Shown piece by piece: positions 409 through 61,591 of a DNA stretch of 64,000 nt. The DNA comes from Raillietiella orientalis. Lineage: Eukaryota. The position numbers and the translations under genes were made by a program. The notes under the pieces are model-generated. The model had not been told where the DNA came from, searched no databases, and saw only the letters and a list, made by a program, of their open reading frames with translations. The DNA is taken from the NCBI GenBank assembly GCA_036172245.1, contig JAYWIR010000023.1, positions 1,798,001-1,862,000 on the forward strand, in the 5' to 3' direction. Position 1 is the stretch's first letter; each line of letters begins with the position of its first letter.

Positions 409-2619
409 CAGGCTTAAATCTTTACCATCATCATGTGGAATGACTAAATCAACCACGCACTACAACGTGAATGTAAAACTGAACAACCTTGCACTCTTGA
501 CAAAATAGTGACCTCGGAATGCGGACTTCAATTTTTACAAACCCTACTACGATCTGCGAGAGCGCTTCAGGAAATAGCAAAGCTTAAAGCAAGAATATTT
601 GTTAACTTTTCGTTTATATCAGTTACACATACAACATTTCATGATTCAGCACAAATATTTCAATTAACTATTGGTTGTTTCCAAAATCACTATTACTGAA
701 AGAAAACCCATGAGTAAACCTAACATATACATACTGCAACAATCACCCTTAAAAATTGTTCGTACAATCAAAAGTAAACCCAAAATACAAAACACAATAA
801 AATTTCCCGACAGAGAAGTATTCATTTGGGGACATTTACGATGATTCTGTAATTATGAAATTCTTTACTGAATTCCCTTCTTTCCTCACAAAACGTCAAA
901 ACTGTATATCTTGAAAACATTTTATTAAAGAGAATCTAAGATCTGCGAATTATTTCCCTAAAAATAGTACATAAATAATTCTGTGGAATCGTTGTGTTCA
1001 AATCGCTTACAAATCATACGCAAGTCTAAACCAAAACTAATCTCCTAATATTCTAATAATATGCATTTTCCATGCAAAACATTGAATACAACCTTTAAGG
1101 AATTTCCCTTGCAAAGAAAAACTGTTTTATGGTTGTTGCTTTTATAAACAAACCAAAGAAATTTACGATAGGTCAAATAGTGCTATCATTTTATTGTAGT
1201 TGTAAAAAAGATACATCGTATATTAAAAAAGTATATGTTAATAATCTATGATCATTTTCTGCAAATTTCCATCCAATACTGTTATATCCAAAGAAACATT
1301 TCTTATTTTAATATTGGTGCAAATTGCTCTCTTCCTAGAAATGCAGACTGCTAATAAGTATTAACCTGTATTATTGTTAAAGTGATTTTTTGAATTGACT
1401 ACTAAATTTCAGCAGTCTTTAGAAGTCATGCCATCAGTAGTATGCTGAATTAATGATCTCAAGGAATTTACACATGCATTAACGGATTTCAAATAAACTC
1501 TAAAGAAATTGAACATTTTCATGATAATTCAGGAAATGTAAAATTCACGCCAAGAAGTTAGTATGCATTAGTAAAGATTCGAAAGAAACCCATAGACAGC
1601 ACAGTATATAGTCCGAAGGCTATGGAAATTTCATGGGGTCATTTAAAAGGAATGAAATTCAATGTACTACTCCAACTTAATTTAACATTACTTCCAAATG
1701 TTAGACCTTTCCATTGATAGCGGTACGAAATGTTAAAGGTACAGTGTTATAAAAAAATTATAAAAACAATATTTTTTTTAAATAAAAACTGATAAAACTA
1801 GCCTTCTAAAATGGACTGTATTCTATGATGAAATATTCTTTAAAACGAAAAACAAAGGACGAAAAATAATGTGACATCTTATGGCACGCATAATTTTTAC
1901 CGTCTTGTACACAGTAAATCTCAAAATGCATTCATTCGTACTCATGCACCGATATATTAACAATTTAATTAACAGTAGGGTTTTGACCGACTATGGACAT
2001 TAACTGGATATTCAATGGAGCACTTGCATTAGGTTCTTGAAGGACACATGTTGAATTTGTATTTAGTTTTCGAAAATTACCTTTTCATTCATTCACCTCA
2101 AGCAGAGACCAGTATTCGGTAAAAATTTTAAACCCCTACCGCCTTTTTTTTTTGTTTCCTTATGAAGGGAAGGGTTATACGTGATTTCTGGAGGAATATT
2201 GTGTTTTAAGGAATATTTCATCATAGAATGCAGTCTATTTTCGAATGACAGTTTTATCAATTTTTTAGAAAAGTATTTTGTAAAAATTGGGTTATGCTAA
2301 CAAACATTGTACCTATATCGTTTCTTACTGATATCAATCGAAAAGCCGAAAGGGAAACATCGATATTCATAACATCATTATTTGAAAATTTATACGAAAT
2401 TTAAAACAATGTCTATATCGTAGTAACCATTTTTGCCTTGGTTCGTGAAATATTAGGAATATTTTTCATTCTGATGTTCGTTTCTATCAGTCTCACTTCT
2501 TCAAAAATTCGATTGTAAGTTCCTTTTGTTGAAACATTGTTGCGTTCTTTAATATCAATTCTCTTTGTCTAACGAAGACAGACACAAGATACTCAAGAAC
2601 TGTGATTTTTAAATAAGAT

Positions 2620-4026
2620 ATGACATCACTGCTTAGATTATGCTGTTGGGGAATTGAAGAGGATACAGATCAAACCAGTAGACAGAAAGCTGAAGATGAT
2701 AAACTGGAAGATATTCTTAAGCAGTTTCGAATTTCTGATGAACAACTCCGAGAAATAATGAAGATTCTTCTTGATGAAATCAATAAGGGATTGAAGAAGA
2801 GTACAAACCCTCTTTCCAGCGTAAAATGTTTTCCGACGTACGTTCATAACATTCCAACGGGAAAAGAAAAAGGAAAATTTCTGGCCCTTGATTTGGGAGG
2901 TTCAAATTTTCGTATTTTGTTACTTACTGTGGATGGACGCAAAATAGAATTTGAATCTGAGACCTATACCATGCCTGAAAGTCTGAAAACAAGCGCATCA
3001 AACAAGCTGTTTGCCTTTATTGCTGACTGTTTGGAAGAATTCATACACACACGAAGTCTTGAACAGGAAGTTCTTAGTCTTGCATTCACCTTTAGTTTTC
3101 CTCTGATACAAAGAGGAATTAAACGAGCAATTTTATTGAAATGGACAAAAGACTTTAAATGTCCCGGGGCGGAAGGTCATGACATAGTCCAGATTTTAGA
3201 AGAAGCATTAGCTACGAAAGGCTTGAAAGTCGATGTCAAAGCAATCATCAATGATACAACTGGATGTTTAATGTCCTGTGCAAGTCGCTATCCTACTTGT
3301 TACATGGGTGTCATTGTTGGTACGGGAACGAATGCTTGTTATATGGAAAAAATGGAAAATGTGGAACTGTATGAAGGCTCCAGAGAAAATAAGACAGAAG
3401 TCATCATCAATTTGGAATGGGGAGCATTTGGTGAAAATGGCTGCTTAAAGCACATACAAACAGAATTTGATAAAATTGTAGATAGAGCTGATGCACATCC
3501 TGGGCAACACATATTTGAGAAACTAATATCTGGATTGTATTTAGGAGAACTTGTTCGTTTGATACTAAATGATCTTTATAAAAAAAAAATATTTATGAAA
3601 AACAAGCCACTTCCGAAATTTCTAAAAGAACAGAATGGTTTTGATACGAAATTTATGTCCACTGTAGAAATCGACAAAGGAGTGACTTGGTCGAATACCA
3701 GAGAATTGTTAGAAGCACATTTTCAAGAGAAGAATTTTTCCAGAAGAGATCTGGAGATATTCCACAAAGTTTGCAAAACTGTCACCATGAGGTCTGCTTT
3801 TCTTTTATCAGCAGCCATTAGTACTGTGATAAATAAAATGGGCAGGACGCAAGTTACCGTGGGAATGGATGGCTCATTATATAGATTCCATCCTAGATAT
3901 CGCGAATATCTCTACGAAAAGATAAATGTTTTCAAAAATCCAGATATTCAATTTGATCTTCAACTAGCAGTTGATGGATCAGGAAGAGGAGCAGCATTAG
4001 TTGCAGCAACTTATGAGAAAGCTTAA
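2620..4026 (+). CDS. Hexokinase (single-domain, 468 aa), intronless
   Basis: Uninterrupted ORF with hexokinase motifs KCFPTYV, FLALDLGGSNFR, FTFSFP, WTK, INDTTG, GVIVGTGTNACYME, INLEWGAFG, FEKLISGLYLGE, DGSLYRFHP and DGSGRGAAL. An AATAAA overlaps the stop codon. Confidence 0.96.
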   Translation: MTSLLRLCCWGIEEDTDQTSRQKAEDDKLEDILKQFRISDEQLREIMKILLDEINKGLKKSTNPLSSVKCFPTYVHNIPTGKEKGKFLALDLGGSNFRILLLTVDGRKIEFESETYTMPESLKTSASNKLFAFIADCLEEFIHTRSLEQEVLSLAFTFSFPLIQRGIKRAILLKWTKDFKCPGAEGHDIVQILEEALATKGLKVDVKAIINDTTGCLMSCASRYPTCYMGVIVGTGTNACYMEKMENVELYEGSRENKTEVIINLEWGAFGENGCLKHIQTEFDKIVDRADAHPGQHIFEKLISGLYLGELVRLILNDLYKKKIFMKNKPLPKFLKEQNGFDTKFMSTVEIDKGVTWSNTRELLEAHFQEKNFSRRDLEIFHKVCKTVTMRSAFLLSAAISTVINKMGRTQVTVGMDGSLYRFHPRYREYLYEKINVFKNPDIQFDLQLAVDGSGRGAALVAATYEKA

Positions 4027-24600: not shown

Positions 24601-27600
24601 GTTTCAAAGATTTGGAAATTGATTTGTTTCAAGGAGATATTTGTAGTCTGATTTCTAATTGTTATCCATTGGTAGTAATCAAGAAACTTTGGATACGTTG
24701 GCATTAAATGCATCATCTCAAAATAACTTCACTGACAATTCCACTGAAGATGTAGCTCCCTTGTCAGCTGACACAAATCATGTAGAGATTTGTAGCACAC
24801 TTCAGTCAGCTGATCAGAATCTTGCTACTAGTAGTATCAATGCGATTATGGATGTTGAAAGAACCAATGATCACATGTTAGCAATTTTAGCAATAATCCT
24901 TATGGTTTTAAAAAATCTTTTCAGTAGAGACGAGAACACAACTGCAACTTGTCAGGATCCATCTCAAGATATACCTGTGGTTAGTGATTCTCATGTTTTG
25001 TCAGAGAATCCAGAATCTTTGAGGGAAACCAACTCAAATGTTGATTTGAATGTTTTGGGTTCTGATGGCGTTGACTACAGCGAAGTTCTTAGAGGCATTC
25101 AAATACCAGAAGGAGTTGATCCTGCATTTCTTGTGGCCCTTCCTGATGATGTGCGACAAGAGGTTATTGCTGAAGAATTAAGGTAAAATATTGCAACAGT
25201 AATCTTCATAACCTTTCTGCAACTTGCAGATTACAACAGTTACGTCAAAGAGCTCAAGCTCAGGCACAGGAAGCAGCAGCTAGTGGAAGTCCTGTTGTCC
25301 TAGAGGTCAATCCTGATTTCCTCGCTGCCCTTCCTCCAAATATTCAAGAAGAAGTACTCACTCAGCAGCATTTAGAACAACAGAGGTATCAGGGAGCAAC
25401 ATCAAATCCTGAGGAACCTGTTGATGCTGCTATTTTTTTATCAACACTTCCTGCTGCCTTACGCCAATCAGTTAATAACAAAATTACTTCAAAAAACATA
25501 TTTTTGAGTTTTGTTTTTAGGTGTTGGCTGATATGGAAGATTCCCAGATGGCTGTTTTGCCTCCAGATTTAGCAGCCGAAGCCCAGAGTTTGAGAAGAGA
25601 ATGGGAGACTAGAAATCGCCAAGTGATGCATGACCGATTTTTAAACCATAGCAACACCGCATTGTCATCTATTCTTCGAAATACAGGTATGTCGGCAGTA
25701 CAAATAGAAAGTAATTAGCTTTGGCACTTGTATAGTTGGTCGATTGCGTGGTCGGTATGCATTCCAAAGAGTGCATCGTAGCCAGTGGAATCCATGGTCT
25801 AGTAACACCACTGCTACTCAAGCAGGAAATTTGAAATTACGAGGCCGTCAATTGTTGGATTACGAGGCTCTCACTTGTCTTCTAGTTTTGATCTTCCTGG
25901 ATGAGCCAAAACTGAATACTGGAAGACTCCATCGAGTTCTCCGTAATTTGTGTTATCATGGACCCACTCGAGACTGGATCATTAAGGTATAGATTCACTT
26001 AGTATGTAGAGTGCATCGCAATTATTGCAGTCATTGCTGTCCATTTTGGAACGTTGTGGAGATTCGTATTCACTAGAAAATATATCAGCTGATTTGATCA
26101 AGAAGAAGTTGAAAGGTTATACCAGGCTGAATTCGAATTCCCTAGAGAACATAAGGTAGGAAATTTGATTGCAGAGCATCATTCAATCATGATCTCAGAG
26201 ATCGTCCGACTCCACAATCTTGGTTAAATATAAGTTTGGATGCAGCCCTGGGATGCCGGGCTAATGTTTTCCAGGTTTTAAAAGGCCATTCTTCTGCTAA
26301 TAAAAAACACTGCTCTGAGAAAGGAGCCATTCAAATTACGATACATCCTCAAGCTTCCCCATTTGTGTGCAGGTAAGCTGATTAGTGCAGTTTTAAGTGA
26401 ATATAACATGTGTTTAGACATACCTTGGATGTGCTTATTTCATTATCCAAGAGTTTCCCTACTCACTTCCTTCCTGCATCATCAAAAGATGTAGCTGGTC
26501 CCAGTCAGTCTTCTAGTGGTAGCAATAAGCCAATGATGGATTTCTGGGATATTCTTGTGCGCCTTGATTCTCTGAGTAGTTCAAAGAAAGGAAGGAGCCT
26601 AATGCGATCACACAGCACTGGTCATCATCCAATGGAAGAATTAGCTAATTGCATCACGTTTGAAAATGCTGCCATCGGCCAACTAATCAACATGTTTCAA
26701 TATAATGTAATGCGCCGCAGCACGCAACTTACGGATAAATTGTTGCGCCTGCTCGCACCAGTATCCTTGGGATTGATGGACTCTGGTGTAACTGTGAATG
26801 AAATTTTACTGCAACTTGCTGTTGGGGTACTGATGTCAAAAAACTGTTCAGAGGAAGGTTTGGAGGATGGAACAAATTTGCTATTGCGCCTCTCTTATGC
26901 AGCGCCTTCCAACAGAGACATCATGCTGAAGTTGTTGTTATCTGGTGCTAGTGATCTTGGACGCTCAGTTCGAGGGCATATCACTCTGTTGTGGAAAGAG
27001 CTGAAGAAACTGAATAAAAAAATTCTCCAAGAGAAGGCAGAAAACGAAGAAGGAGATACTGCTGCAGAGAGTGAAAAAAGTTACCCATCCCGTGGTGTAT
27101 TAAAGGATCGTTTCACTCGTGACACAGTGGTAATCTCCGCCAGTGCTCGCCCAAAAACTTCAATGGGAGAATTGCATCTGCCTTCTATGGCTGCATTGAC
27201 TTCAAAAACATCAAACCAAGCATTTTTTCTGCGCACACTAAAAGTAATTATTCAGCTCCGAAATTCTTCTGCTACGAAAAGAGATAAACGAAAAGAAATC
27301 GCAGTGCTCCCAATAAATCAAAGAGAAGAGGATTCTAACGTTCCCCGAGCCTCCCAGAGAACTGAAACAACAGAACAGTCGGAAATTGCTATGCAACCAA
27401 TGGATGTCGACACCATTACAGAAGAACAGAATCCCGCTCTGCCTCTTTTAAGCGAACAATTAGGCCTGGATAAATTGTGGCAAACCTTAAGTGGCTGTTT
27501 GCGTGAACTAGCGCATACTCCTGATCACCATGCTGTGCTTGTTTTGCAACCAACAGTTGAATCTTTTTTCTTGGTGCATGGAACTGCCAGCACCCCTCGT

Positions 27601-29040
27601 TTGGATTCGAAAAAGAATGAAGAAAAAGAAACAAGAGAATCCCAGCTGTCGCATTTGCAGCAAGAAGTTGCACCTCTTTCTCCAATACCTTCTACAAGTA
27701 CCGGAATTCAAGAGCAAGCATCTCAAGATTTGGTTACTACACACTCATCGCCCGGTTTGTCTCCGGATACGAAAAAATTTCTTGAATTTGCTGAAATGCA
27801 TCGAACTGTACTGAATCAAATATTACGTCAGTCAACGACTCATCTTGCCGATGGTCCATTTGCCATGTTGGTGGATCATACTCGTGTGCTTGATTTTGAT
27901 GTGAAACGGCGTTACTTTCGTACTGAGTTGGAACGATTGGACGAAGGTGTACGACGAGAAGACCTTGCGGTGCACGTAAAGAGAGAACATGTCTTCGAAG
28001 ATTCATATAGAGAATTACATCGTCGTCCTCCAGATGAATGGAAAAATAGATTTTACATCGTTTTCGAAGAGGAAGAAGGCCAAGATGCTGGGGGCTTGCT
28101 TCGTGAATGGTATCTAATCATCTCCCGAGAAATCTTCAATCCTATGTATGCACTGTTCACAACATCTCCAGGAGATAGAGTAACGTACACGATCAACCCG
28201 TCATCCCATTGCAACTCTAACCATTTGAGTTATTTCAAATTTGTTGGACGAGTCATCGCAAAAGCTGTCTATGACAATAAGTTGCTTGAGTGTTATTTCA
28301 CCCGATCATTTTATAAGCATATTCTGGGCAAGCCCGTTCGTTATGTGGATATGGAAAGTGAAGATTATTCTTTCTACCAGGGACTAGTGTTCCTTATGAA
28401 TCATGATGTCAGTGAATTGGGCTATGATCTCATGTTTAGTACAGAGGTTCAAGAGTTTGGTGTAACCGAAGTACGGGATTTGATTCCAAACGGTCGAAAT
28501 ATTCCCGTTTCAGAAGCCAACAAGTTAGAGTACATACGTTTGGTTTGCCAAATGAAAATGACTGGAGCCATCCGCAAGCAACTGAATGCTTTCCTGGAAG
28601 GCTTTTACGACATCATACCGAAACGTTTGATTTCCATTTTCAACGAGCAAGAGTTGGAATTGCTGATCTCTGGTTTGCCGAACATTGATATCGAAGATCT
28701 GCGTGCAAATACCGAATACCATAAGTATCAGCCCATCTCACTTCAGATCCAATGGCTCTGGAGAGCGTTGCGTTCGTTCGAGCAGGCCGATAGAGCGAAA
28801 TTCCTCCAGTTCGTGACAGGAACTTCCAAAGTCCCATTACAGGGTTTTGCTGCATTGGAAGGAATGAACGGTATCCAGAAATTTCAAGTACACCGAGATG
28901 ACCGTTCCACCGACCGTTTCCCATCTGCACATACGTGCTTTAACCAGTTGGATTTGCCTGCATACGAAACCTACGACAAATTGAGATCTATGCTCTTGAA
29001 AGCAGTCAATGAATGTTCCGAAGGTTTCGGTTTTGCATAA
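9668..29040 (+). CDS. HUWE1: E3 ubiquitin-protein ligase HUWE1 (armadillo-like N-terminus, UBA, UIM, WWE, UBM repeats, HECT); multi-exon
   Basis: Starts [10 protein letters not shown] at 9668. Spliced exons give [34 protein letters not shown] and [15 protein letters not shown]. Domains: UBA ([17 protein letters not shown], about 16790), UIM ([13 protein letters not shown]), WWE ([15 protein letters not shown]) and UBM ([21 protein letters not shown]). The terminal exon 26418-29040 ends with the HECT motif [16 protein letters not shown]...CSEGFGFA*. Verified introns include 9713-9760, 9980-10027, 10268-10311 and 10372-11833. Confidence 0.97.
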
Positions 29041-46346: not shown

Positions 46347-48897
46347 GGCTGTACCAGATACTCACAATGTTTTTCACAATGTGATGAGCAGTTGCAAATT
46401 GGCACAACTGTTACATTGATAATTGTTGGATAAGATTGCTGACTTGTAGGTGCAGTGTATGGAGGTTTACCAAAATAAAAGGAAACATGGATGCTATTGA
46501 GCTCGGTTATAAACATTATGCTTGGTTATCTTAATGACTACGAATTAACTTTCCATCTAACAAAATAGTCAAATCATACAGAATTGCATATGAAGTTTTG
46601 CAAATTGATGTTTCCATTTCACCATTCCCTATAAGTAAATATGTAATGAAAAAAATTCACTCCCTCTTGTGAGGATGACGAAAACCAATCATGATTGGGA
46701 AGTAGATGATGAGCAGGTGAAATGCTTGTTTCACTGAAGTGTTTATGCTTTTATTGCAATGTGCATATGGTGTTAAGAGGAAACTTATTGACTGAATTAA
46801 AGGCATTCAATGTAGATGCAAGACGAAATTCTCAGCAAAGTGGACTTTGAAAACGCTGATTATTATGTGGTTAGCAAACCTAAATTCCTAGGCAAATTAA
46901 TTGCCCTAATTACCTAAGGAAGGGTACATATTAATATTTCTATTTGTATATTTATGTGTGTGGAACCATATTTATGTATATGCATGTGTATAAACAAACG
47001 TACATATATATCGATGCATACGTGCTGTAATTTTGCATAACATTCGCCACTTTTGCTTTACTTACATAAAGGATTCAGCAAGTACCACTATCATAGAAAC
47101 CCGAATCATGCCTTACAACGATCAAAATCAAAGATGGTGGAATCTTCAAGAAATACGAAGAATTATCTGCAAACAGCTACACAATCTAGTTATCTGGGAA
47201 ATTTTGCAGTGTCTTTGTAGAATGCTCGTTAATTGTGTGTTATGAATGCAATGATAATGGTTGTGAGTTGCTTATATTAAATACATACACATACTTACAA
47301 ATAAAAACATCATGCTTATGGTATGCGAAATACTATTCACATTTAATTCAATACTTAACACAATATGTTTCAGTATACTAAAGACACAGAATATCCAAAT
47401 AAAACATCAAAAGTTATGATCTGTGGACTAATGAACAGTCACGAATCATAAGTTTTCTGTTACAAATTTATGCAATGTACCAAGGTAACTCGTCACTCCG
47501 TTTTTCTACATTCCCGAAGTTAAAAGAGGACCAGTGTTTAAATCAAAATTCCGAACATTTTTATTTATTTATAAATTACTTTTTTATTCGAACTTGAAGC
47601 TATTTGAAAAGACAGCTTAGAACTTGAATTTAATATTTATAGGTCCATGATTTCCATCGTTTAGAATAACTAAGGGCTCCGGTGTATAACCCTCCGGTGT
47701 TTCATGTATTGCAAGACACCGATAACCTTATCTTGCCAGTACGAAATTCCAACTTAAATTTTGAGCCAGTCATTCTGTAAAGTTTATTCTGAAGCATATC
47801 GTTTGTATATCGAATATTTCGATTCACACTAAAAAAAATTTACTTGTGACAACACTGCATGTTCTGTTTCGAAACTCATTAGTCCAATTTTTATATTTTT
47901 CATTATCATTGATATCCATTCCCTCAGTTCACTATGAAAGATAAATTGATGAATACATCTCCATGCCATGGCAAGGTCCATCCTTTCCTCTTTTCCCTCA
48001 TTATCAAGAATTATTTCCTTTGGGTCGTAAGCATTCTTTTTGTATTCCTTTTTGTATTACTTATTTGAGTACTTTAAATCGATGTTCAATAATTTTTGAA
48101 AGCAAGCGCCGCAAACTATGACCTTATTTCCTTTACATCACTTGCTTATTCCACCCTATTCCGAAATTCTAGATGTCTCAAAGTTTCGAATTATAAGCCT
48201 GCACTTTGAAATCATAAAGCAGTTAGAAATCAAAAGAAAACCTTAATGCACCGCAGCTAGTAAAGTTCTATTGAACTGCTCACGAAAAATGACAATAATC
48301 ACATTATATATAATCATTTCCCTTAACAGATTATCAGGATGGACATCCATTCGTTCGAATTTGCTTGACAAGCGAATTTAAGTCTCTCCAGAAACCACAC
48401 AATTCTTAGGTGCAAGCAATAGGAGAGATAAAAACATCATTCTCGCATTTAGGTTATGGATCTAGAAGGAACTTAAATTTTGTATCTCAATGGCAAATAC
48501 AAGAGCTAACATTTGGAAATCTGCATTGCATATGCGTTAAGACTGCGACCTTTAGGTCATGGGAGAATACTTCCTGCATCACACCGCCAGGGGATAGAAT
48601 TCACGAAAATTCCTATCCTGCAATGCGACTCCCCATTCGCTCTGGTGCATTTGACTATAATCGGGTTGAGAGAAGGCTAAGCGGCACATCGCAATGAAGC
48701 TTAAGTTCCCTAGGACCTACTCCATCGGTTTTCCGCCTTTCAGTCACTATAGTGTACCGTTTAAGTGGCGTGTGGGGAGTCAGAATGGCCTGCCTAAAGA
48801 GAGTAGCATCCGCAAAACCGTCGTCCTCTCCATCACCATGACGATGCGGCGTGCGAGTTGCCCTCGAGTTGCGCCCAAGCAACCAGGACACTGCAAG

Positions 48898-50772
48898 TCA
48901 CTGCAAAGGCAAGACACGGCAGTCATTCGGATGGACAGGGGAATCCGCCAAGGAGACGCCCTTAGTCCGATGCTGTTCGTGGTGTACATGGAGGTGGTTT
49001 CATCACTGGTCCACTGTGGCGGTCGTCTGCAAGGAATACGACTTGACGACGACAGACTGACGCACCTGGCGTTTGCGGACGATCTGCCCTTCTTCCTGAA
49101 GGACGAGAGGGATCACCATGCGTTCCTTAGCGTCGTCGAGTCCACGGAGAGAGGTCTGGGCTTGGAGATCAGCGTCCAGAAATCCCAGCTATTGCCTATT
49201 GGAATTCTGGACCTCTCCGCTTTAACAGAGACAGGATTCCGAGTGGTTGACCAAATCAAGTGCATGGGAGTCCACATCGGCGCTGCCTCGGCTTCGCAAC
49301 GGGTGTGGAAAGAAATTCTGGGGAAAACGAGAGAAGAGGCTGCAAAATACGTCCGACGCGACTTTTGCCCGAAGCAGAGGGTAAACCTGTGGAACGGAGT
49401 CCCCCTTCCCAAGGTGCTCTTCGGAGCAGCCTTCTGCCGACTGGACGAGCGAACGAGCAAGGAGGGGGAACAACTACAGCGAAAAATACTTTGGAATGAG
49501 TTCAAGCCGCGAGTCAGGCTAAAACTGTTGTGCGGACCTCGAGACAAGGGCGGGACAGGGATGAAATCCGTGGATCTGCTGGACGTGCGACAAATCCTGG
49601 ATCTTGCCACCAAATGGGACAAGTGGCCTTATGCAGCGCACACAGCCTACTTGCAGTTGCTCAACAGTTCGAGAGGCCTGATGACTGCCCTAATAGGCAA
49701 ACAAGGACAGTGGGGAAGCATCGATCCCACTTGGAAGCGCAAGCAGGCACTGGTGAACACCCACCATCTCAAAATAGTGCCTAGAAGTAAAGAAATTTGG
49801 AGAGACGAACTGGTAAAGATCATCCCGTGCTTCCTGCGCGTCCCTTGGGACACCAGAAAGTGGATGTTCGACAGGCCAAGGATGACCATCAAGGACTGCA
49901 AGCGGTTCGCCACCAGTGGCGACCGCAAGAAAATGCGACTGTTCTGCCCCAACAAGATGATGAGAAGATTTACCCACAAATATCGAGAGCTCTGGACAAA
50001 TCAGGAATCCAAATGCTGGCGCCTGATCACCAGAGGAAACATCCGACAAGCAGTGAAGAAGAATCCAGACGAGGACGACGCTCTGTCTGTGGCCGCCAAG
50101 GATTGCGGCTGGAACCTGCTTGCGGTTGGAACCACGGTCTGGATGAGAGATTTACCACCCGAGACTCAAGATGACCTCCTGATGTTTTATTGCGGAGGCA
50201 TCCTTAGCGGCACGAGGACGAGACACTGGCCAGGGAACGCGCAAGACGAGATGTGCAAGTCCTGTGGCGCCAGGGAAACCCAACTCCACGTGCTCACCTG
50301 CCCGACGCTGCGCCGGGACTAGTCCAAGCTGAAGGAGGTGACAGGCCTGCAGAGGATGGACAAGATGGAGATCCTGGCAGCGATGTTTGAAGGGAACGGC
50401 AACGTTCCTCGATACAACCGTATGGTCCGCATCACCATCGCCCTCTTTATCACGAGCAAGCATCGTGGTGAGAAGGGCAAAAATGCGGACCGGAATAAAC
50501 AGTGTGCCAGCTGTGGAAATACTGAAAGGTCTAGTTAAAAGGGAAATAGGCATCAGAAGTTGTGGAGGCATTCCCACCTGGACGTACTGTTACATCCTGC
50601 GAAGGATTCAGGAACATAGTCCAGTAAGTGAATTCCCCATGCAAACTCAGTGAGTGGATGCCCGAAGACCCACCCTGAAAGTGAAAAACAGTGAAAACCA
50701 GTGACATTACAGAACACTCGTATGAACGAATGTTGAAAATAAACTCACCCCACCGCAAGTCGGACTGGGGAA
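48898..50772 (+). mobile_element. 5'-truncated non-LTR retrotransposon (L1/Tx1-like ORF2: RT, thumb, CCHC finger) with 17-bp TSD
   Basis: GIRQGDALSPMLF, LAFADDL, ISVQKSQLL, IKCMGV, LCGPRDKGGTG and CKSCGARETQLHVLTCP. In-frame TAG at 50320-22, then a frameshifted continuation to 50653. Flanked by identical AACCAGGACACTGCAAG at 48881-48897 and 50773-50789. Confidence 0.88.
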
Positions 50773-50949
50773 AACCAGGACACTGCAAGCAGCGGGGCGA
50801 ACACGCTTCCCCCCCCCCCTCTCCCCCATTCATCCGCTCCCCTGTTGTTCGATTTGGAAGGAATGCAATGTGAAACAGAAGACACCTAAGTTCTTGTAAA
50901 GTAAACTCTCCGGAGAAATCTATGAAAATTCTAGCCGCCTACGCACTGC

Positions 50950-51450
50950 CCGGTTTCCTGCACTCGTGCGTGCGTACAGGAGTGCGGAGTACCGGTAATC
51001 GGTAGGTCGGAAACAACTGATCACAGAAGCGGAAAGAAAACAGTTGAGGGTGTCAGGGAAGGTGAGGGGGAGGGTGCAGGAGTTCTTGGGTAAGAAAGCA
51101 GCGGTCCTTCGCGCGCACTCTGCTCCTCCAGTAGTGCGTAGAGTCAGTCCAAGGACAATCAATCCCACGGGCGCGCGGAGGCTGCTCCGTTCGGTTTAGC
51201 TGCGAGGTCGCCACGCGCACCGCCACGCCACCGGGTCGCAATGCGCGCCGCGGCGCTGAGCCCTCTCTTCGCAGGCGAGAGAGCCCTTCCGGCATCGTTT
51301 CTCTTGCGGCGAGAGACGCCAGTGGCTGCGATACAACGCGAATATATGCGGAGGGGCTGTGCGGTGTCTTTCTTGGGTCCTGTGGCTGGCAAACCTTCTC
51401 TTTCCTCCGTTCTCTCCCTTCAGAGAAGAATTCAAAGAGTTCTTTGTGCA
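50950..51450 (-). mobile_element. Possible decayed apurinic-endonuclease fragment of a LINE
   Basis: Minus-strand pieces LAARET (~xxLQET), RPGGVAV (~RGVAIL) and LTLRT...ARRTAAFL...PTDY (~YT..SRIDRxFL...SDH); frameshifted. Confidence 0.3.
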
Positions 51451-52399
51451 TGAGGAGCTCGCCCCATTCCGCTTCATTGTATTGTATTTTATTTTTATTA
51501 CTATTATTTTTTTTTAATGAACCTCTCTCGAGTCCTTCTCCCCATCCTAAAGAATCACTCGTGGCATCCGCCCTCGTGTCTATTTATTCACCGAACTCGC
51601 ATAACATGAACACGTCTGTTTCTTCTGAGAACCTGAGCGAGCTGACCGGCTTGCCTCAGAATGACAAGCCTTTTCGGTCTCGAACCTTTTCGGCAGCCGT
51701 GGCAACCTCCGGCTGGGAATTTCCCTGTCTCGCTGCATTCTCAGCTCTGGCACTTCGTGCATCCTGAGTTCTGGTGGGAGTGAAGGGCGCGGCGAGAGGC
51801 TGGCGGATTTTCCCTTCAAGAAGGGACGAGAAGCGGTAGCGTAAAGTTCAAAGAGGATGCTGGAAAGGGCACACCAACAACGGTGCGTGTGTGTGTGTGG
51901 AGGGGAGCTCTCCGGGGAGGCTCGCAAAGGTTTCTTTTGGAAAGAGGAGCTCGTCGAAGAATAAGGCACCCTTTTTTTTTTGGTTCGTCAAGTATGGAGC
52001 TCTTTAACGCTGTCCACGCCACCCAGGGGTGCGTGTCAACTCTTCAAGACAGGGGGTGCCCGAGAGGGAACCACCCCATGAATCCAGGAAGGCTACGGAG
52101 GAAGGAGTCTGTTCCTCTCTCACGCTTGGGAGGGAACCCAAAAGGAAACCTCTTCCTTATTCTTTCCGGAAAGACCCCCCCGGAGGGGGTCGCTCCATCT
52201 TATCTTCTCCGGAGAACGCACAAGGGAACTTTTTTTTTCTCCTCTGAAGAGAACCCCAAAGATTGCTTCCTGAAAAGAGCAGTGCTCCTCTTGATGCTCT
52301 GGAGAGACATCAATCCACCAGCTCCATGGTATGCGAGGGAGGCTCCCCCACCGAGGAAGCAGAGGGAGGGGGGCGGCTCCATTTTCGCAACCAGGGGGG

Positions 52400-53116
52400 G
52401 AACCTGAAGGCTCCTGGATATCCTAGAAGGACCCTGGAAAGTCAACTTCCAATCCCGACCGCTCAGCGGGGGCATCCGGGGGTATCTGGCTTCCACCAGT
52501 GAGGCCTCCCGTGCAACGCCCGCCGGCTTCATTGGACACGGGGCAGGTGTGCTAATCATGGCAGGTGAGAGGAGCAGGAATCCGTCCAGTACCTCTTAGT
52601 GAACTGTGTTGTCCTCTGGCCCTTTTGAGGACGCTTTGCTGCTAACCTTGGAACCCCCGGCGGCAATCCCGGAGACGTTTTCAAGCGCCTCTTCCTGCGC
52701 GACGCCCTAACGCAGGATCGTGGCGGCCTGGAGCAGCAACGACAGAGGAGGTCAGAACGACAGGGACGTCATCTACTGTGCTGTCCTCTTCATGAGAACA
52801 GCGTCAAGATGGCCCCACCTGGGAGTCTCGAAACAGGAACTTGCCGGTATCCTGCGAAGGATTCAGAGGACGCCCTCCAGAATCCGGTGATCCCTGCCAC
52901 CCCCCCATTTTTTGACTGCATTTTTTGTTTCATTTTTTTTTTCTTTTTCTTTGTCTTCCCTTATCCTGTACTGCTGAGGCGAACCCCACTGACCTGCGTG
53001 CCGATTCTCGGCAGGTTCCTTCTCGTAGTTATAAGTAGCGTGGCAGGATCAAACGTCCTGCTACAGACATGTATGTTTATTTTTTATAAATAAACGCCCC
53101 GGCGTGACTGGGTATC
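52400..53116 (+). mobile_element. 3' fragment of an L1/Tx1-like element, paralogous to 58100-58772
   Basis: Shares ggcctcccgt(g/a)caacgcccgccg, cctcttcatga, tcaagatggccc, aaacaggaacttgccgg(t/c)atcctg, a T-rich UTR and terminal hairpins with the 58 kb copy. Confidence 0.8.
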
Positions 53117-54954
53117 AACCAGTGCCGCACCCGAATGCAGGTCAACCGGCGCTATTTTGCATAGGGGACTCGAACGCACGACGCACCTTTTTCTCTGGCG
53201 TGGATACTTCCTCTGGTGGGATTCGAACGGTGGAGCTTGGTGCCACCACGCGCGGAGACCGCAGCAGCCAAACGCGGCTGCCAACGCGGGCCATGTGGCT
53301 ACGATATGTTCATTTTGGGAGGAAGAGAGAAGGAAAAAACAAACAATGACACTGCGGGGACGAGGGGGGCGGGGGGCACGGGACCATGAAGAGACTGCCA
53401 CCTTGCCCGTAAAGGGGTTCCGGTTGGGGGGTGAAGCAGAGACACCGAAGGCGGAGACGAGTGTAGGGAGGTCAGTCAGGAAAATAAAGAAATAAACAAA
53501 CAGCTGAAAAAGAAGAAGAAGCAAAACAGACAGTTTTTATTTGCACAATAAAAGGAAAAGGAAGAAACGTCATCAAGGACTTTGCGAGTTGGGCATTAGC
53601 AGCCTTTCGGCATTCTGCACAACGAAAAGGGAGGGAGGAAGGGGATGGGAGAAGAGAGAGATAGAGAGAAAGAAACTAAAGGAGCACGAAGATAGGAGGT
53701 GCTCTGCCGGAGAACGAAGGGTGGCAACCATACCTACCCTATTTTCTGAGCTCCCTCTTCAGACTTCCCTCCGGCTTCGCTTCCCGATCGGCAAGGCTTC
53801 CTCCACGCGAAGGGAGAAACTTGTCCGGGCAGGGGAAAGAGCGATGGTTGCCCGAGACCTTCGCTGGGAGGCAGTCAAGTCTCAGATCACGCGTGTGTGT
53901 GCGCCACCGTTCACGAGGACGCCAGGAGGAGGAAAGGTACGAAAGGGCCATCGGATGCTCGTGCAAGGACGCGGGTAAAGCGTCTCTGGGGCAAAAGCAT
54001 CTCCGAGACCGGAGAGCGAAGCATCCCGGAGTCCGTAAGCGGAGGAAAGACCGCACCCGCGCGCCGAAGCGACGTGTTCTCTCAGGAAGGTCCGAAGACT
54101 CGTGGGACGGCGCGAGGACAGGCACATGAGAACGCAACCCGGGGGCCACAGCTTGCATCCCGAGGGCAACCTCCACTAGCCCAAGCTTGGCGCAGGAGAC
54201 TGCGTCTCGTCACGTGGGCAGCCCCCAATCAAAACGCGTGCGTATCCTTCCAGAGGCAAAGTTCCCATGCGCGCAGGTTTCCCACTCAATTGTGGCCAGA
54301 GCATTCATTACAAAAAATACATCCTTGTGTATTTTTTGCCACCCGCCTCGAACCTGCTGAAGACCGGTACGGTGAGGTCCGCTTCGTCAGCGTGGGAGAA
54401 GAAGGGAAAACCAAAAACAAAAAGGGGAGGTATTCACTTGGCAAGGGATGAGAAGGAGGTGGTGGGGAACCGAGGAAGGGATCTCTGCCCGCTGCGAGGC
54501 ATTTTCTACATCCCTTGTCCAAGATGCTGACAAGTTCCTTGCCATGTGTGGCCCAGGTGGGGTCACCTCGAGGAGGTCTTCAGGAAGATCCACGCCCAGT
54601 GGATGGCTTCCCTGTCACTTCGGCCTCTTCCTGAGTTTTAGGCCGCCAATATCTCGCGAAGACAGAAGAGAACTGAGAGGGATGCGGCCACCGGGCAGTG
54701 CGGCACGCACGGAAAGGCGTCCCTGGGGCCGCCTGCCCGGATTCCAAGGGTCGTCTCTAGGCGATCCCGGAATCTAGGCACGAGGGTACTATGAAGAAGA
54801 GGGGCGTTTTCCGGATGCTCGATCTCTGGACGCACGCGCCTCAGTTCGGATCTCCGATTTCGTTCCAAACTCCTCTAAGCATGTAATCTCTGCTTCTTCG
54901 AGTCAGATGGCGTCTCCTAGGTGCTCCTCCCCCTGCTCGGGAATCTTCGAAAAA

Positions 54955-55648
54955 TATGGGCTGTCACCTTCACTTCCAAGAGGGTCACAGCCACAGGGTG
55001 CACACCCCCAGCACATTGAACCCATGATTATTAGCCTCACAGGCATCACGCTTGTCACCAGTGACAACAGGTTTGCAGCGACAGCGGCCTCCATCATCAC
55101 CCTGCAGGTGCTCTAAGCCGACAGGATCACAGCTGCAGGGTGGGTATTAACCATCACTGCGCCGAAAGTCCTGCTTGCAGAGCTTACAATGAGGGCCATC
55201 TGTGCTGCCAGCGCAGTCAATGCAGCGACCACCGCGGCCTGTCTTCCCATAGAGATCTCTCATAGAGACTTTTCCATCTTCGATCCCATAGAGAGCGAAG
55301 AAGCGCGCTGGGCACGGCAGCTGCAGTTGCATGCTGAACATTCTTGGGCATCCGTGGCAGTGGACCCGCTCCAGAGGAGATCACTGTGCAGGGGCGGGCA
55401 CTCGTTGAATTCGTGGCCCGCAGTGCTGTGCTCGCAGATGCACTCAGGCGAGGAGCTGTCGTCAAAGGTGGGAGACCTTGACCTATGACTCGGAGGTGCG
55501 GCCATTGGCCTCGCACCTTCCTTCTGCAGCGGACTCGCCGACAGCGCAGAAGTAGGATTTGAGCGCTTTGTCGTCTCTGAATGGTTCATCGCCAAAGTGC
55601 TCCAGCACGATTCGGATGCGGGTCGCGGTCGCTCATTCCTGGAGCTCT
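54955..55648 (-). pseudogene. Laminin gamma-1 (LanB2/LAMC1-like) gene fragment: end of the LN domain plus laminin-EGF repeats 1-3/4; intronless, with stops and frameshifts
   Basis: Minus strand, across frames: ELQE*ATATRIRIVL; FGDEPFRDDKALKSYFCAVGESAAEGRCEANGRTSE; CICEHSTAGHEFNECPPLHSDLLWSGSTATDAQECSACNC; LYGKTGRGGRCIDCAGSTDGPHCKLCKQDF; CSCDPVG...GRCRCKPVVTGDKRDACEAN; GCAPCGCDPLGS. These are collinear with laminin gamma-1 'LQEWVTATDIR...[36 protein letters not shown]...LY..TGHGGHC'. Confidence 0.85.
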
Positions 55649-56299
55649 TTTCTATTTATTCATTGTCCCCTCCCTCCGTTTCTATTTTTTGGAAGCCAGA
55701 CGGTGTGCCGGTGGTTATCCCGATGGACTCTTTTTTTTTGGAGGGGGCATTTCTTGTGTCTCGAGAAGAGACCCTTCTACCCCTCTAACCTGTAATTTAT
55801 TTTTTTAAAATAAACGTACCTGCGTAACCGGGTTCGCTCGGCAAACCGGTCGAAGCAACGACTCCCCCACGGAGCATCTCCCGAACGCACAAACCTCAAG
55901 CGCCCATGCCATCGCGCCCAAGTGGGCACTCTAGCAAGGAGGAGGCACGCGTGATGGCAGGAGGGCACGGGAGAAGAACGGAGGAATCCGTCGATTCAGT
56001 TTGCGACTCCCTGAGTAGGCTGGCACCGTCCAGCACTTCCCCCTGGCACGCTTGAGTCTCTTCGTAGGGCCCAAATCGCAGCGATCTGGCGATCTGCTTC
56101 TGCAGAGTCAAGTTCCAAGATGGTGGCATCCCGGTTCATGCTCTTCCTGCTTCCCACGTCCTTCCAGCTTTTTCTTTTTTTCCCACCCGATTCACTGAGA
56201 GCCGTTGCCCCGTCCCCGCCATGGAGATGTCGGAGACGGCTCGACAACGCGGCCACGTGGGGGCTCGCAAAAGTGTAGTCAGGCGTTGCCGTCACCGTG

Positions 56300-58772
56300 G
56301 TTTCGTGTGTTCTCTCCGTCCGATGCCAACTTGGATGAACTACGGTCGGGAGTGGGATCAAACAGGATCCGAAGGCACAAGGAGGAACATCGTCACTTAT
56401 TTAGCAAAGGATGTCCTCAGTTGATCCACGGACGGCGCGATTATCGTACTCTGCAAGTAACGCACCGCAATTCGTACTGTCCAAGCGTGTATCTTCGACT
56501 GCTTCCACGTGGTTCCAAGTCGTGGATCGCAGAGCTTTTTTTTTTTTTGCTTTTCTGGACCGAGGTTACGTTGCTCATCTCTTTCCCCTACATCGTCCTC
56601 TGCACCGATTCGTGGTTGCAGTGCGTCGTGGGTTAGAGTTCTTCCTGCGAGATGGCGCTGGCCGTCCTCCTCCATTCATTCGGGTACCGCACCGGTAGCT
56701 GTTTAAACAGGATGCCCCCGATGAGGGCCGGGAAAATGGGAATCGACCTTCGGATTCTTCCAGGAATCAAGGATTGGGGGGGGGGATTCCCCCTCCGGTT
56801 GTGCAAAGGAGTGGACCCCCTAGTGTGTCGTAGTGATGGAGTCGGTGTGTCGCGACCTCTCCAGAGAGTGCAAAGAAGCGAGCCGATCCCTTCTTGGAAG
56901 CTGCGCCCTTCCGGATTTCGGAAGCGCCCCTTCGGTGCTCCCTTCAGAGGAGGAGTAAAGAGGAGCGATTCCTTTCCCGGGGGACCAGTCCGGAGAAGAA
57001 ATTCCTACCAGAGGATCATGGGTGCGAACTGAGTCTCGCACTGATGCAGAATGCTCTTGCGCATCCATCCGTCGGCTCGAAATCCTTGGACGACTGCTTG
57101 TTCCCGATCATTTCCTGGGCCTCGAAGAGAATCGCGCGGTGTCCACCTTGCTTCCAGTTCACCCGCTCGCGGCTTCCCCCGTCCTAGAAATGGCTGTGAG
57201 ATGTTTCGGAGGTTTCGGGAGACTGAGGTTGCCTTAGAGTCTACAGAAACGCAAGTGGATCTCGATGCCGAGCTTGCGAGTTTTGATCCCAGCAACACTC
57301 TTGCATGCTGCACGAGCAGTGCTTTTTTTCCTTTCCTTTCTTTGCCACCGGTGTGTGCAGCAGCGTTCGTCTCGAGCATCACCTCTCAGCGTCTCAAGTC
57401 GGGAGCGCGGCCGCAAAGTCTTCTGCTCCACCAGCGACGACAGGATGATCTACGTAAGGCTGGTGGACTGGGCCTCCTTACTCTGGAGCGGATGGAGCCT
57501 CAGCTCCAATTCCAAAACTCGCACTGGCCAGCTTTGGACTTCGCCTTGGTGCACTTTGGCAAGAATCCTCGCCAAGCGAGCAACCGGCTGCGAGAGATTG
57601 ACTTCGGTCGTCGTGGCCACCAAGCGGAGTTTGAGCCATCCTGGCTCTCAACTTAAGCAAATGGAAGTCTTGGTACAACGAAATCCCTGGATCTCCATCC
57701 TCTCCACAAACTGGGCTACTTGGCTGCATGAGTTCCGTTTCCTCGTTGGGTAAAATCGACGGCACGAGCGAGGCAGAGCGCATCTGCCTACGCAACAACA
57801 GATACACTCGTCAGTCGTTGAGGGAGATCCTAGGTAACACAGGAATCTGCTTTGGGCGTCGCTCACCCCTCTTGCCCCAGTGCTCTACGGGAGGCAGGAG
57901 ACAGCGAGAGACCTTCCGGCAAGGTGGGAGGTGACGTATCGAAATATCGAAAATAGAAGAAAACATCTAAATGCGTGGACAACTAGGGAACTGAACGATT
58001 CTTCCACCCCGAATGTCCCTCTTAAAGGACTGCTACGCTGGGGAGGACTACTAGACATACCTCTGGGTGAGATACAGTGGCCCCTAGAGTGCTGGGACAG
58101 TGCAACCCTCCCCCAAAGTGGCAGAAGTCAGCGATCCTTCTGTTGCATTGGGGCCTCCCGTACAACGCCCGCCGACACTATTGGACCCGAGGGAGTGTAA
58201 GCCCCAACTGCAGCAGGTGTGGCGAAAGAGAGCCCCTCCTGAACCTGCTCGTGGGTTGTGTTGCCCTCCGCCCCCTGTGGGAACGCTTTGCCGCGTCCCT
58301 GCGGATCTTCGAGGGCAACGCCAGAGACCTGAAGCACCTCTTCCAGCGGGACGTCCTCACGTCGGCCGCATCCCCAGCAGCTGCCTACGCAGCGGAACCG
58401 TGGCTGCATGGAGCAACGCCAGGGGAGGCCACTACGACATGGCACCATCTATTTTGCCGTCCTCTTCATGAAGACTTGACTTCAAGATGGCCCTATTTGA
58501 GAACCTTAAAACAGGAACTTGCCGGCATCCTGAAGATGATGCGCTCCGGCACCCTGTGATCCCTTCCCGAACCCTCCCATATTTTGTATATATTTTTCTG
58601 TTTCATTTTTCCTTTTTGTTTTTGTTCTTTCCCCTTCCCCTCTGCTACAGAGACAAACCTGCGCCCCGGTTCCTTTTAGTATATTTACAACGTGGCAGGA
58701 CCAAGAGTCCTGCCACTGACTTGCATGTTTATTTTTTTATGTAGATAAAACGCCCCGGTGTAACCGGGTGTC
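56300..58772 (+). mobile_element. Decayed L1/Tx1-like ORF2 C-terminal half and 3'UTR
   Basis: Ends in LLLHWGLPYNARRHYW...CSRCGEREPLLNLLVGC (zinc-finger region)...WPYLRTLKQELAGILKMMR*, then a T-rich UTR and hairpins. Many frameshifts; the 5' boundary is approximate. Confidence 0.72.
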
Positions 58773-60445
58773 AAACCAGCGACGACAAGCAGAGAGGGCA
58801 CATGAACGTCGGAATGGTCGCAGGGTCGGTACAGGTCGATTAAAGCTGGGACCGGCTCTCTTGGATTTCTTTTCTCCCGTGTGGACTCCGGTTGGTCCAT
58901 CCCTCCGGCTCAGAAAGGGAAAAAGAACCCTTCCGTTTTTCGTCACGTTTTTGGAAACACGAATGGATCACATCGCATTGGGCCCACAAACACCTCCTAC
59001 CCCCATAAACACAAACTGGAGACGGACGACGAAATGCCTCGTGGCTGGACACGTGACGTCGAACGCCGTGCAGGCGACGTGGAGGCTTTTTCCGCGATCC
59101 AACTGGCAGTGGGGAGCTCATTGAATGCCAACACCTATAACGTATGCATGTAGGCGATGAGGAAACCATCTTGAAAGCGGAGCCTTGCACGCAGAGAAGT
59201 TCTTTACCCGCATGAGTCACACGCTTTCTTTCCTCTTGACCTCCCTAGTTTACAGGTCGGATCCCGAGCGAACGCCCGAGCCTTCCCCAGCATGCGATGA
59301 TGGACCCCTTCGTGAGTCCTGCTTCCCTCACGGGTGGATTCTCGAGGGTGTTTCAGTGGCTGAGGTGTTTCCTTCTCTTTGAGGCTTCGTCTTCTTTATA
59401 AGAGCACCTTCTCATAAAGAAGGCGATGGACATCGGCGGTCATGCTAGGGACCTTCCTTTTCCCGCCGAAAAGTCCGCTCAGTATCTCTGCACGGGAACA
59501 GAAATCCCTCCGAGGCATCCGGCTAGCCTGCCTCGGCGCGTCCCAGTCTCGGATTCGTGCTCGGCGGATACGGACTCCCATGCAGAGTCGGGTCATGCGG
59601 TGGAAGGGGATGCGTTCCTCTTTCCTCCTCACGACTCGCGGAAGCTGCCGTGAGGGTGCGCCATCCAACGGCGAGGATCTCACACCACGCGGAGGGCCCC
59701 ACGACGGAACGCCCCGGATTTCGGGCGGCAGGTTCGACTTCCAGTGCTGTTCCAATAGCTTCGCGATTTGCATGAGCACCGTCTCGCATACGCGAGCGGT
59801 CCAGCCCCTAACCGGTCACTCTTGTCTGCGTGCATTCTTTGATATCCTCGTTTGTTACAAGGGATCCTTGCACAGCTGGCGCGTTTCCGTGTGCCTCACA
59901 TGCCTTTGGGGCAGTCGCGTGACGTTGCAAGCTGCCCACGCTGCCATCTCAGCTCTTCTTCGCATGCACGCTTTTTTTTTTTCGTGTTCCAAGAAACATG
60001 AAAGAACCCGAATCATGGCCTATCGTGGCTCACGGCTAAGACAAATGGCATCACCGAAGCAGTGGTAGCAGGGCCATCAGCCTCACGGTTCACTGATTGC
60101 ATCTGCTTTGGCTTTTTATGCAATATTTGTACTCTCTGCACCTAAGGGTGCGAAGTTCACACATGCTTCAATTTATGGATGCCATCCACGTGCCTCATAT
60201 TAATAATAACATACTCTATAATGCAGCAATGGCTGATGAGACCATCTGTCTTTGTGAGAGTTGCTGAAATTTAAAGACCGTGAAAGAACAACGACAGTGA
60301 ATCACAGTTCATTCGTTTTGTTTTTTTTACATGAGAGCTCACTTTGGAAGCGGATGTGAACTCACATCAATGGTAGTGACAGCAGAGGATGCATCCCAGT
60401 GACGGCGTTGGCAAGTGTGGCCTCTCCCGATCCGGGCCATGTATA

Positions 60446-61591
60446 TGTTACGGTTCAATAATAATAAATCCGGTTAGTATTAATAATTTACCAGCTACTA
60501 TTAATAATAACTAAATAAAAAGGTCGAAATGAATCATAACACATAATAATTACATTTACCGGTAAATATTAATGATTACCAGTGAAACCTAGTAAATTTA
60601 ATAAAAACATGTTTTATAATATTTCTTATTAAAACACACATGCATTATTTATTACACAGACAAGTTCTTGACAAATCCAAGAAAAAGAAAAAACAGCCTT
60701 GTGAGAAAAATTATACAAAATTGTGAGAAAATTATACAAATTAGTTAAAATATTGATTTTCATAAAGGTAGGAGAGGAATGGCATTAATAAGAGAAGAAT
60801 TTCACGTTATTGTAAACAAACTATTTATTTTTGCAGGAAGAGCTTTTGTGGCATTTGGAATCACAAAGGATTTTCGACTTTTTACGTTGGCAGCGATTTG
60901 AGCTCCAATCGCCTGTACAATCGCAATGTTGGTATCCCTGACCACCTAAATTGGAATTCTCTCGAGAACATTCTCTTAGAGTTATTGCAATATCTGGATC
61001 TTTATGAACTGAAGCAAAAGTCTCCTTGCAGACGGTAAATTCAGTCCTTGTACAGAGCTGGTTTAAAATGCCATGTTTTGTACCGAATTCATACAAGTTT
61101 TCCATTTTCAGTAGAAATTGCAACAGCCATAATATTCCCGGTTATCTGCTTTAGCCCCCTATCTGAACCTGGACTCCCTATCCGGACGCTTTCTCCTACA
61201 TCCGCCATTGGACATTTAGTCTTCGGAAGCCGTCACATTTTTTCAGCTTCCCTTCTCAGTGGCTGCTCAGCAGAGTTTCGAGCTTCTTGAATCGTTTCAG
61301 AGATTCCACGAGTGCAAAAGAAGAAGTATCTTCCTTGCTTTTTTCACGATTTTCCAATTCAACAGTTGGCAATATCTTTTACTCTGTTATCTTTCTTATC
61401 GACCTTTTCTGTTTCAGAAGGTTCGTCTTTTGATTCTAAATTATTACACTTACCACTGACTGTTGTGAATTATTAATAATTACCGATTAATGCGGTAAAT
61501 TCTTATGAATTATTCACTTTGGCCTCTTTATTTGGTTATTATTAATGATAGCTGGTAATTATTAACCCCATTCATCACTTGAACCGCAGCA
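60446..61591 (-). mobile_element. Ginger-like (Ginger2/Tdd, KRBA2/SCAND3-type integrase family) internally deleted DNA transposon with ~90-bp imperfect TIRs and TATA TSD
   Basis: The left end TGTTACGGTTCAA...ttaataatttaccagctactattaataataactaaataaaaagg matches the reverse complement of the right end, TGCTGCGGTTCAA...ttaataattaccagctatcattaataataaccaaataaagagg. TATA flanks both ends (60442-45, 61592-95). The minus strand retains the Cys-rich C-terminus GTKHGILNQLCTRTEF...GGQGYQHCDC...NRC..KKSKILCDSKCH.SSSCKNK*. Confidence 0.85.

Follow-up and report, generated by a model that had tools for sequence, protein, structure and literature searches.

A decayed, intronless laminin gamma mRNA fragment joined in opposite orientation to a truncated LINE tail in Raillietiella orientalis

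In this study, we report that a 64,000-nt window of the Raillietiella orientalis genome (the whole stretch of DNA analysed; contig JAYWIR010000023.1, positions 1,798,001 to 1,862,000, assembly GCA_036172245.1) carries, on the minus strand of positions 54953-55647, a dead, single-copy, reverse-transcribed internal stretch of the native, spliced laminin gamma mRNA. The end of the laminin LN domain is followed by LE repeats, spread over three frames, and the 5' end of the piece is joined to a LINE tail lying in the opposite orientation, so that the piece is probably an inverted mRNA/LINE chimera. Of the routes considered, we lean towards two-RNA twin priming, by which the laminin piece and the LINE tail would have been inserted in a single event. 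The features concerned are given below. The two LINE families, here named LINE-A and LINE-B, are provisionally taken by us, on the basis of their motifs, to be L1/Tx1-clade LINEs.

48670..50322, plus strand: reverse transcriptase frame of a related LINE (Pfam RVT_1, E 3.5e-12), at the left edge of a GC-rich block
54283..54768, minus strand: 3' end of a 5'-truncated LINE-A (second LINE family), in the same sense as laminin, with a sharp stop, not touching the laminin piece
54769..54952, no strand: interval of 184 nt between LINE-A and laminin
54935..54951, plus strand: left copy of a candidate decayed target-site duplication (13/17 bases identical in the right copy; one gap of 2 nt)
54953..55647, minus strand: processed, decayed laminin gamma mRNA fragment (565/655 bases identical to the spliced parent, computed on the trimmed piece), made up of the last 9 nt of one exon, three complete exons and most of a fifth, and comprising the LN domain end, LE1, LE2, LE3 and the start of LE4 (the numbering is our interpretation of the cysteine pattern)
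about 55639/55638, 55517/55516, 55334/55333 and 55119/55118, minus strand: splice junctions within the copy
55263..55297, minus strand: insertion of 35 nt in the copy, containing repeats of a neighbouring 8-mer
55646..55836, plus strand: 5'-truncated LINE-B 3' UTR with the non-poly(A) terminus of its family, 190 nt, multicopy
55836..55854, plus strand: right copy of the candidate target-site duplication, directly after the LINE-B terminus
G000:C32:2306026-2307446, minus strand: parent locus, an intron-bearing laminin gamma gene

The parent was located by a DNA search of the organism's own genome with the piece, in which, besides the window, four separate stretches of contig C32 matched at 79-90% identity. 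LN-domain matches were present on five contigs of the genome, and the window DNA matched C32 alone. When compared with PDB entries, the LN exon of the parent gave its best match to laminin gamma-1 (69.3 bits versus 46.4 for netrin-1), LE1 alone hardly discriminating between the two (63.6 versus 61.9). The laminin B domain (domain IV) is not known from netrins, and frames downstream in the parent matched Pfam Laminin EGF and Laminin_B (E 6e-08 for Laminin_B); netrin was thus ruled out as the parent, and the assignment to a laminin gamma chain made in an initial annotation of this DNA was upheld. Pfam searches with two short reading frames from the copy, and a PDB search with a 26-residue query, were uninformative. 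A separate LN locus, G000:C5:3314695-3315456, holds an entire laminin LN domain in one open, intronless frame, unlike the other four LN loci.

Alignment to the spliced parent showed that four GT-AG introns (85, 60, 550 and 56 nt) are missing from the copy exactly at the splice junctions, the first junction being defined solely by 9/9 matching bases of the upstream exon. Three stops (one of which adjoins an insertion and is alignment-dependent), five frameshifting indels (+1, -1, +35, -2, +1) and three in-frame indels were identified. The initial annotation had placed an LN end with LE repeats at 54955..55648, broken by stops and frameshifts and free of introns, and all of this was recovered at nearly identical coordinates. 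Comparison with the genome's own laminin gamma gene, which it had proposed, gave a parent of differing intron content and 86% identity; the native region is not a single GC-rich exon copied together with intron sequence, and neither netrin nor another laminin chain proved to be the source.

Differences between copy and parent fell on all codon positions (26, 43 and 32), and dN/dS was 0.76 over 217 codons, in an alignment extending about 40 nt beyond the true end of the piece, which indicates near-neutral decay; the copy has been dead since about the time of its insertion. The 35-nt insertion looks like local slippage, judging by its repeats. A drift of the copy towards GC was also detected, 49/289 A/T sites having changed versus 32/366 G/C sites (p 0.002, presuming that most changes arose on the copy's side), and it was present at codon positions 1 and 2 too, with CpG dinucleotides rising from 30 to 40. 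A regional GC-ward drift was rejected, the neighbouring LINE-A and pooled LINE copies being without it.

The copy stops within an exon and carries neither the 5' nor the 3' end of the mRNA, nor poly(A), which points to internal priming; the classical hallmark of a processed pseudogene, an mRNA 3' end with a poly(A) tail, is thus not displayed. Searches with the sequence flanking the copied part (2.0 kb on the downstream and 2.1 kb on the upstream side) gave no other pieces of the laminin mRNA, and no leftover pieces of the remainder of the gene were present in the window or in three nearby stretches (30 kb). A count of copies with the same joints, as had been proposed, yielded neither a second copy nor the same joints elsewhere in the genome by DNA searches in which the best candidates were scored.

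The piece had been described as much richer in GC than the resident genes and as possibly foreign. The GC3 of the copy (0.63) does exceed that of two resident coding stretches of the window (0.30 and 0.39), but this is not special to the piece: it lies in a block of approximately 11 kb, about 49,000 to 60,000, of 53-58% GC, the remaining window being 28-43%, and the parent is equally rich (GC 0.56 and GC3 0.61, against 0.58 and 0.63 for the copy). The parent on C32 also lies in a GC-rich region, which passes into an AT-rich stretch of that contig. A foreign source, or duplication at the DNA level of a single large GC-rich exon, would account for a copy exceeding the resident coding stretches in GC, but deserves hardly any credence: the 86% identical parent resides in the same genome and is split by four introns absent from the copy, no intron sequence was co-copied, and the equal GC and GC3 of parent and copy led us to reject both foreign origin and segmental duplication.

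In the genome at large, LINE-rich blocks of high GC content (mostly 50-60%) and AT-rich blocks (approximately 30%) succeed one another on the same contigs, as seen at 49000-60000 of the window and at C32:2296001-2324000, and native genes track the GC of their block (laminin GC3 0.61; the two coding stretches of the window 0.30 and 0.39). High GC in this genome is therefore the mark of a LINE-rich compartment that also holds native genes, and not a sign of foreign DNA. Other features of the window include long open frames at 2617-4026, presumably hexokinase-like, and at 26407-29040, where the frame resembles the final exon of a HUWE1-like HECT ubiquitin ligase. Positions 56089-56972 are 99% identical over 885 nt, with sharp ends, to G000:C23:1930998-1931885, approximately 77 kb away on the same contig, a pair that probably arose by recent duplication or by gene conversion. 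Where the GC-rich block ends on the right, AT-rich inverted repeats at 60471-60537 and 61465-61558, approximately 1 kb apart, may delimit a small DNA transposon.

The initial annotation had also noted a LINE 3' UTR abutting the right side of the piece, and this was confirmed at 55646-55836 of the plus strand. A search of the organism's own genome gave 166 candidates, of which the 40 best were scored, and among these the repeat was present at 39 other places; in 11 other LINE-B copies it forms the 3' UTR after a stop codon, ahead of which such copies carry a zinc-knuckle-like coding tail, and the 5' ends of these copies are cut at differing points. The tail described here differs from the majority of those 11 copies at 28/180 sites, shares a 2-nt overlap (TC), common to both templates, with the laminin piece, and points away from it. 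An upstream part of LINE-B was not detected on the left of laminin by profile search, and by pairwise alignment 10/11 copies fell below their own shuffle maximum, one lying slightly above; laminin is therefore not simply interrupting a longer LINE-B, and insertion into such an element was rejected.

Variable 5' truncation and target-site duplications were seen in these LINE families, with a perfect 13-mer duplication around one LINE-B copy among 10 LINE-B loci with a located end, and 10-12-mer duplications around three inserts nested in LINE-B. The related reverse transcriptase frame of the window gave the RVT_1 match listed above, zf-RVT remaining below the cut-off (E 0.24 and 0.078), and none of four folds of LINE ends was better than shuffles in a search for a terminal hairpin. 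Two more plus-strand LINE 3' ends, 66% alike and also with a non-poly(A) terminus, are located at 52497-53122 and 58146-58779 of the window.

On the left side, LINE-like sequence had been said to adjoin the piece (about 54560-54950), but LINE-A, which differs from the majority of 12 other copies at 69/421 sites, ends at 54768, 184 nt short of laminin. The intervening 184 nt had no match by DNA search of the genome, nor when nhmmer and tblastn were run against loci totalling up to 375 kb, and a protein search gave one match (E 0.08). We read this interval as pre-existing flank; it could alternatively be a third template.

According to two-RNA twin priming, the LINE enzyme, having cut the target, would have reverse-transcribed 190 nt of its own RNA, beginning at the 3' end, while the other end of the cut would have primed inside a laminin mRNA, from which approximately 670 nt would have been copied towards the mRNA 5' end. 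The two cDNAs would then have been joined head to head over the 2-nt overlap, resulting in the order flank, inverted laminin, LINE tail, flank. Such an event should leave one copy of a duplication immediately left of 54953 and the other immediately right of 55836, and the candidate duplication lies at these places. In an anchored test, 3/150 and 7/600 random left ends scored at least as high as this candidate, which had been seen by eye before testing and whose alignment needs a gap, and the left end, which scored 18.5 with the flank here, reached 4.5-11.5 with the 3' flanks of 10 further LINE-B copies. On the other hand, 597/5000 and 1369/11157 unanchored pairs (approximately 12%) scored as high, the right flank has upstream matches elsewhere that equal or surpass the candidate left copy, and the right copy resembles the LINE's own terminal motif. 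A decayed target-site duplication of 17-19 nt around laminin and LINE-B is accordingly graded here as suggestive only. An empty site was not found in paralogous searches of the organism's own genome.

The opposite orientation of the two pieces does not fit simple template switching and fits two-RNA twin priming, which is further favoured by the direct joint to a 5'-truncated LINE tail, the shared 2 nt and an anchored candidate duplication that is above chance at both predicted places. Internal priming, the missing upstream part of LINE-B and the capacity of these LINEs to generate target-site duplications speak for it as well. Against it, a 2-nt overlap is common by chance, and divergence taken as age (approximately 14% for laminin and 16% for LINE-B, which are compatible) does not set LINE-B apart from LINE-A, also at approximately 16%. 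No clear overlap was found when complementarity between flank and mRNA was sought at the outer joint, where the flank is decayed. The chimeric retrocopy by template switching or transduction put forward in the initial annotation thus survives in part: the copy is a retrocopy and a LINE chimera is likely, but the touching LINE lies opposite, contrary to the two routes proposed, each of which leaves both parts in one orientation.

A tentative but serious contender is that the laminin cDNA, whether as a retrocopy once longer or as a patch closing a DNA break, and LINE-B were inserted at different times, the same standing covering jointly the variants in which a deletion joined or trimmed the pieces or the cDNA replaced upstream LINE-B. 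The block is a pile of LINE pieces in which a nearby LINE end is expected, the candidate duplication is weak, and nested insertion yields head-to-head joints elsewhere in the genome; the lack of leftover laminin and of an upstream LINE-B remnant in the searches described above, as well as the anchored duplication test, argue against separate events. As regards such joints, 3/11 LINE-B loci have a reversed LINE directly upstream, in nested insertions with their own duplications. At these loci, L066 (C60), L073 (C13) and L074 (C48), a second LINE family lies reversed at the same site, the LINE-B coding tail, and the inserts, with duplications of 10-12 nt, are approximately 0.7, 1.1 and 1.3 kb long. 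Their own duplications and differing lengths indicate independent site-specific insertions, and the idea that head-to-head two-LINE insertions are frequent here was rejected, the three clear cases being nested; they therefore lend no support to twin priming and supply an alternative route to head-to-head joints.

Template switching in the same sense, from LINE-A RNA to a 184-nt template and on to laminin mRNA, is unlikely. LINE-A does lie 3' of laminin, in the same sense and at about equal age, and three-part chimeras are mentioned in the literature (PMC4476161), but two jumps and a template without a match in the genome would be required, a duplication pairing the LINE-A 3' flank with the far end of laminin was not found, and this type requires a direct joint in the same orientation, whereas the touching LINE is opposite and the same-sense LINE is 184 nt off. 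Ordinary twin priming on one fused RNA, from an old laminin allele with a LINE-B tail, would produce an identical geometry, with laminin inverted and a large deletion. It is very improbable: the parent locus (C32:2276001-2324000, 48 kb) today holds antisense scraps of LINE-B and no same-sense tail, so that a ready-made fused RNA is not evident.

According to Law and Burns 2026 (PMC13174262), on human LINE-1 chimeras, the two parts share one orientation after template switching or RNA fusion and face opposite ways after twin priming; 15/17 of their mRNA or lncRNA chimeras are sense, and for the antisense ones the authors regard twin priming as possibly the better fit. The laminin piece resembles the latter in being a spliced mRNA piece, without the first exon, antisense to the LINE. 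The human chimeras have an L1 poly(A), an endonuclease motif, duplications confirmed by multi-genome alignments and mostly long L1 parts, whereas the LINE described here has a non-poly(A) end and is 190 nt only, and its duplication is a candidate.

Inverted 3'-truncated snRNAs with 5'-truncated L1 inside one duplication, for which priming of the second RNA from the other cut end was proposed, are described by Doucet et al. 2015 (PMC4476161), and the laminin/LINE-B geometry is the one drawn there. Those chimeras involve a short snRNA, flank complementarity and a clear duplication; by contrast, the partner here is 670 nt of protein-coding mRNA, and flank complementarity was not found. U6/L1 template-switch chimeras in the same source are similar in that a truncated LINE carries a copy of a cellular RNA at its 5' end, but their two parts share one orientation, and the LINE that touches laminin is reversed. 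Processed pseudogenes, which LINEs produce in trans (review PMC3747384), share with the piece an intronless, decayed cDNA of a host mRNA; unlike them, the laminin copy lacks poly(A) and the mRNA 3' end, and was therefore not primed in the usual way.

It is doubtful, on present evidence, that a non-poly(A) LINE in an invertebrate-like genome captured a protein-coding mRNA by internal priming from the second cut end. No invertebrate case was found by title or abstract opening in a literature search conducted largely outside subscription papers. The laminin copy has no function and is a fossil of LINE activity, and as one dead fragment it means little alone. If such capture were general, LINEs without poly(A) priming would thereby have a route to exon-bearing retrocopies, and the genome would hold a recurring class of inverted mRNA pieces, devoid of a tail, at the 5' ends of LINEs; one case cannot show recurrence. 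If twin priming holds, a rare mechanism of human L1 would also apply to a LINE whose 3' end differs and to an mRNA piece of considerable length, and laminin mRNA would have met LINE enzymes in cells that transmit their DNA.
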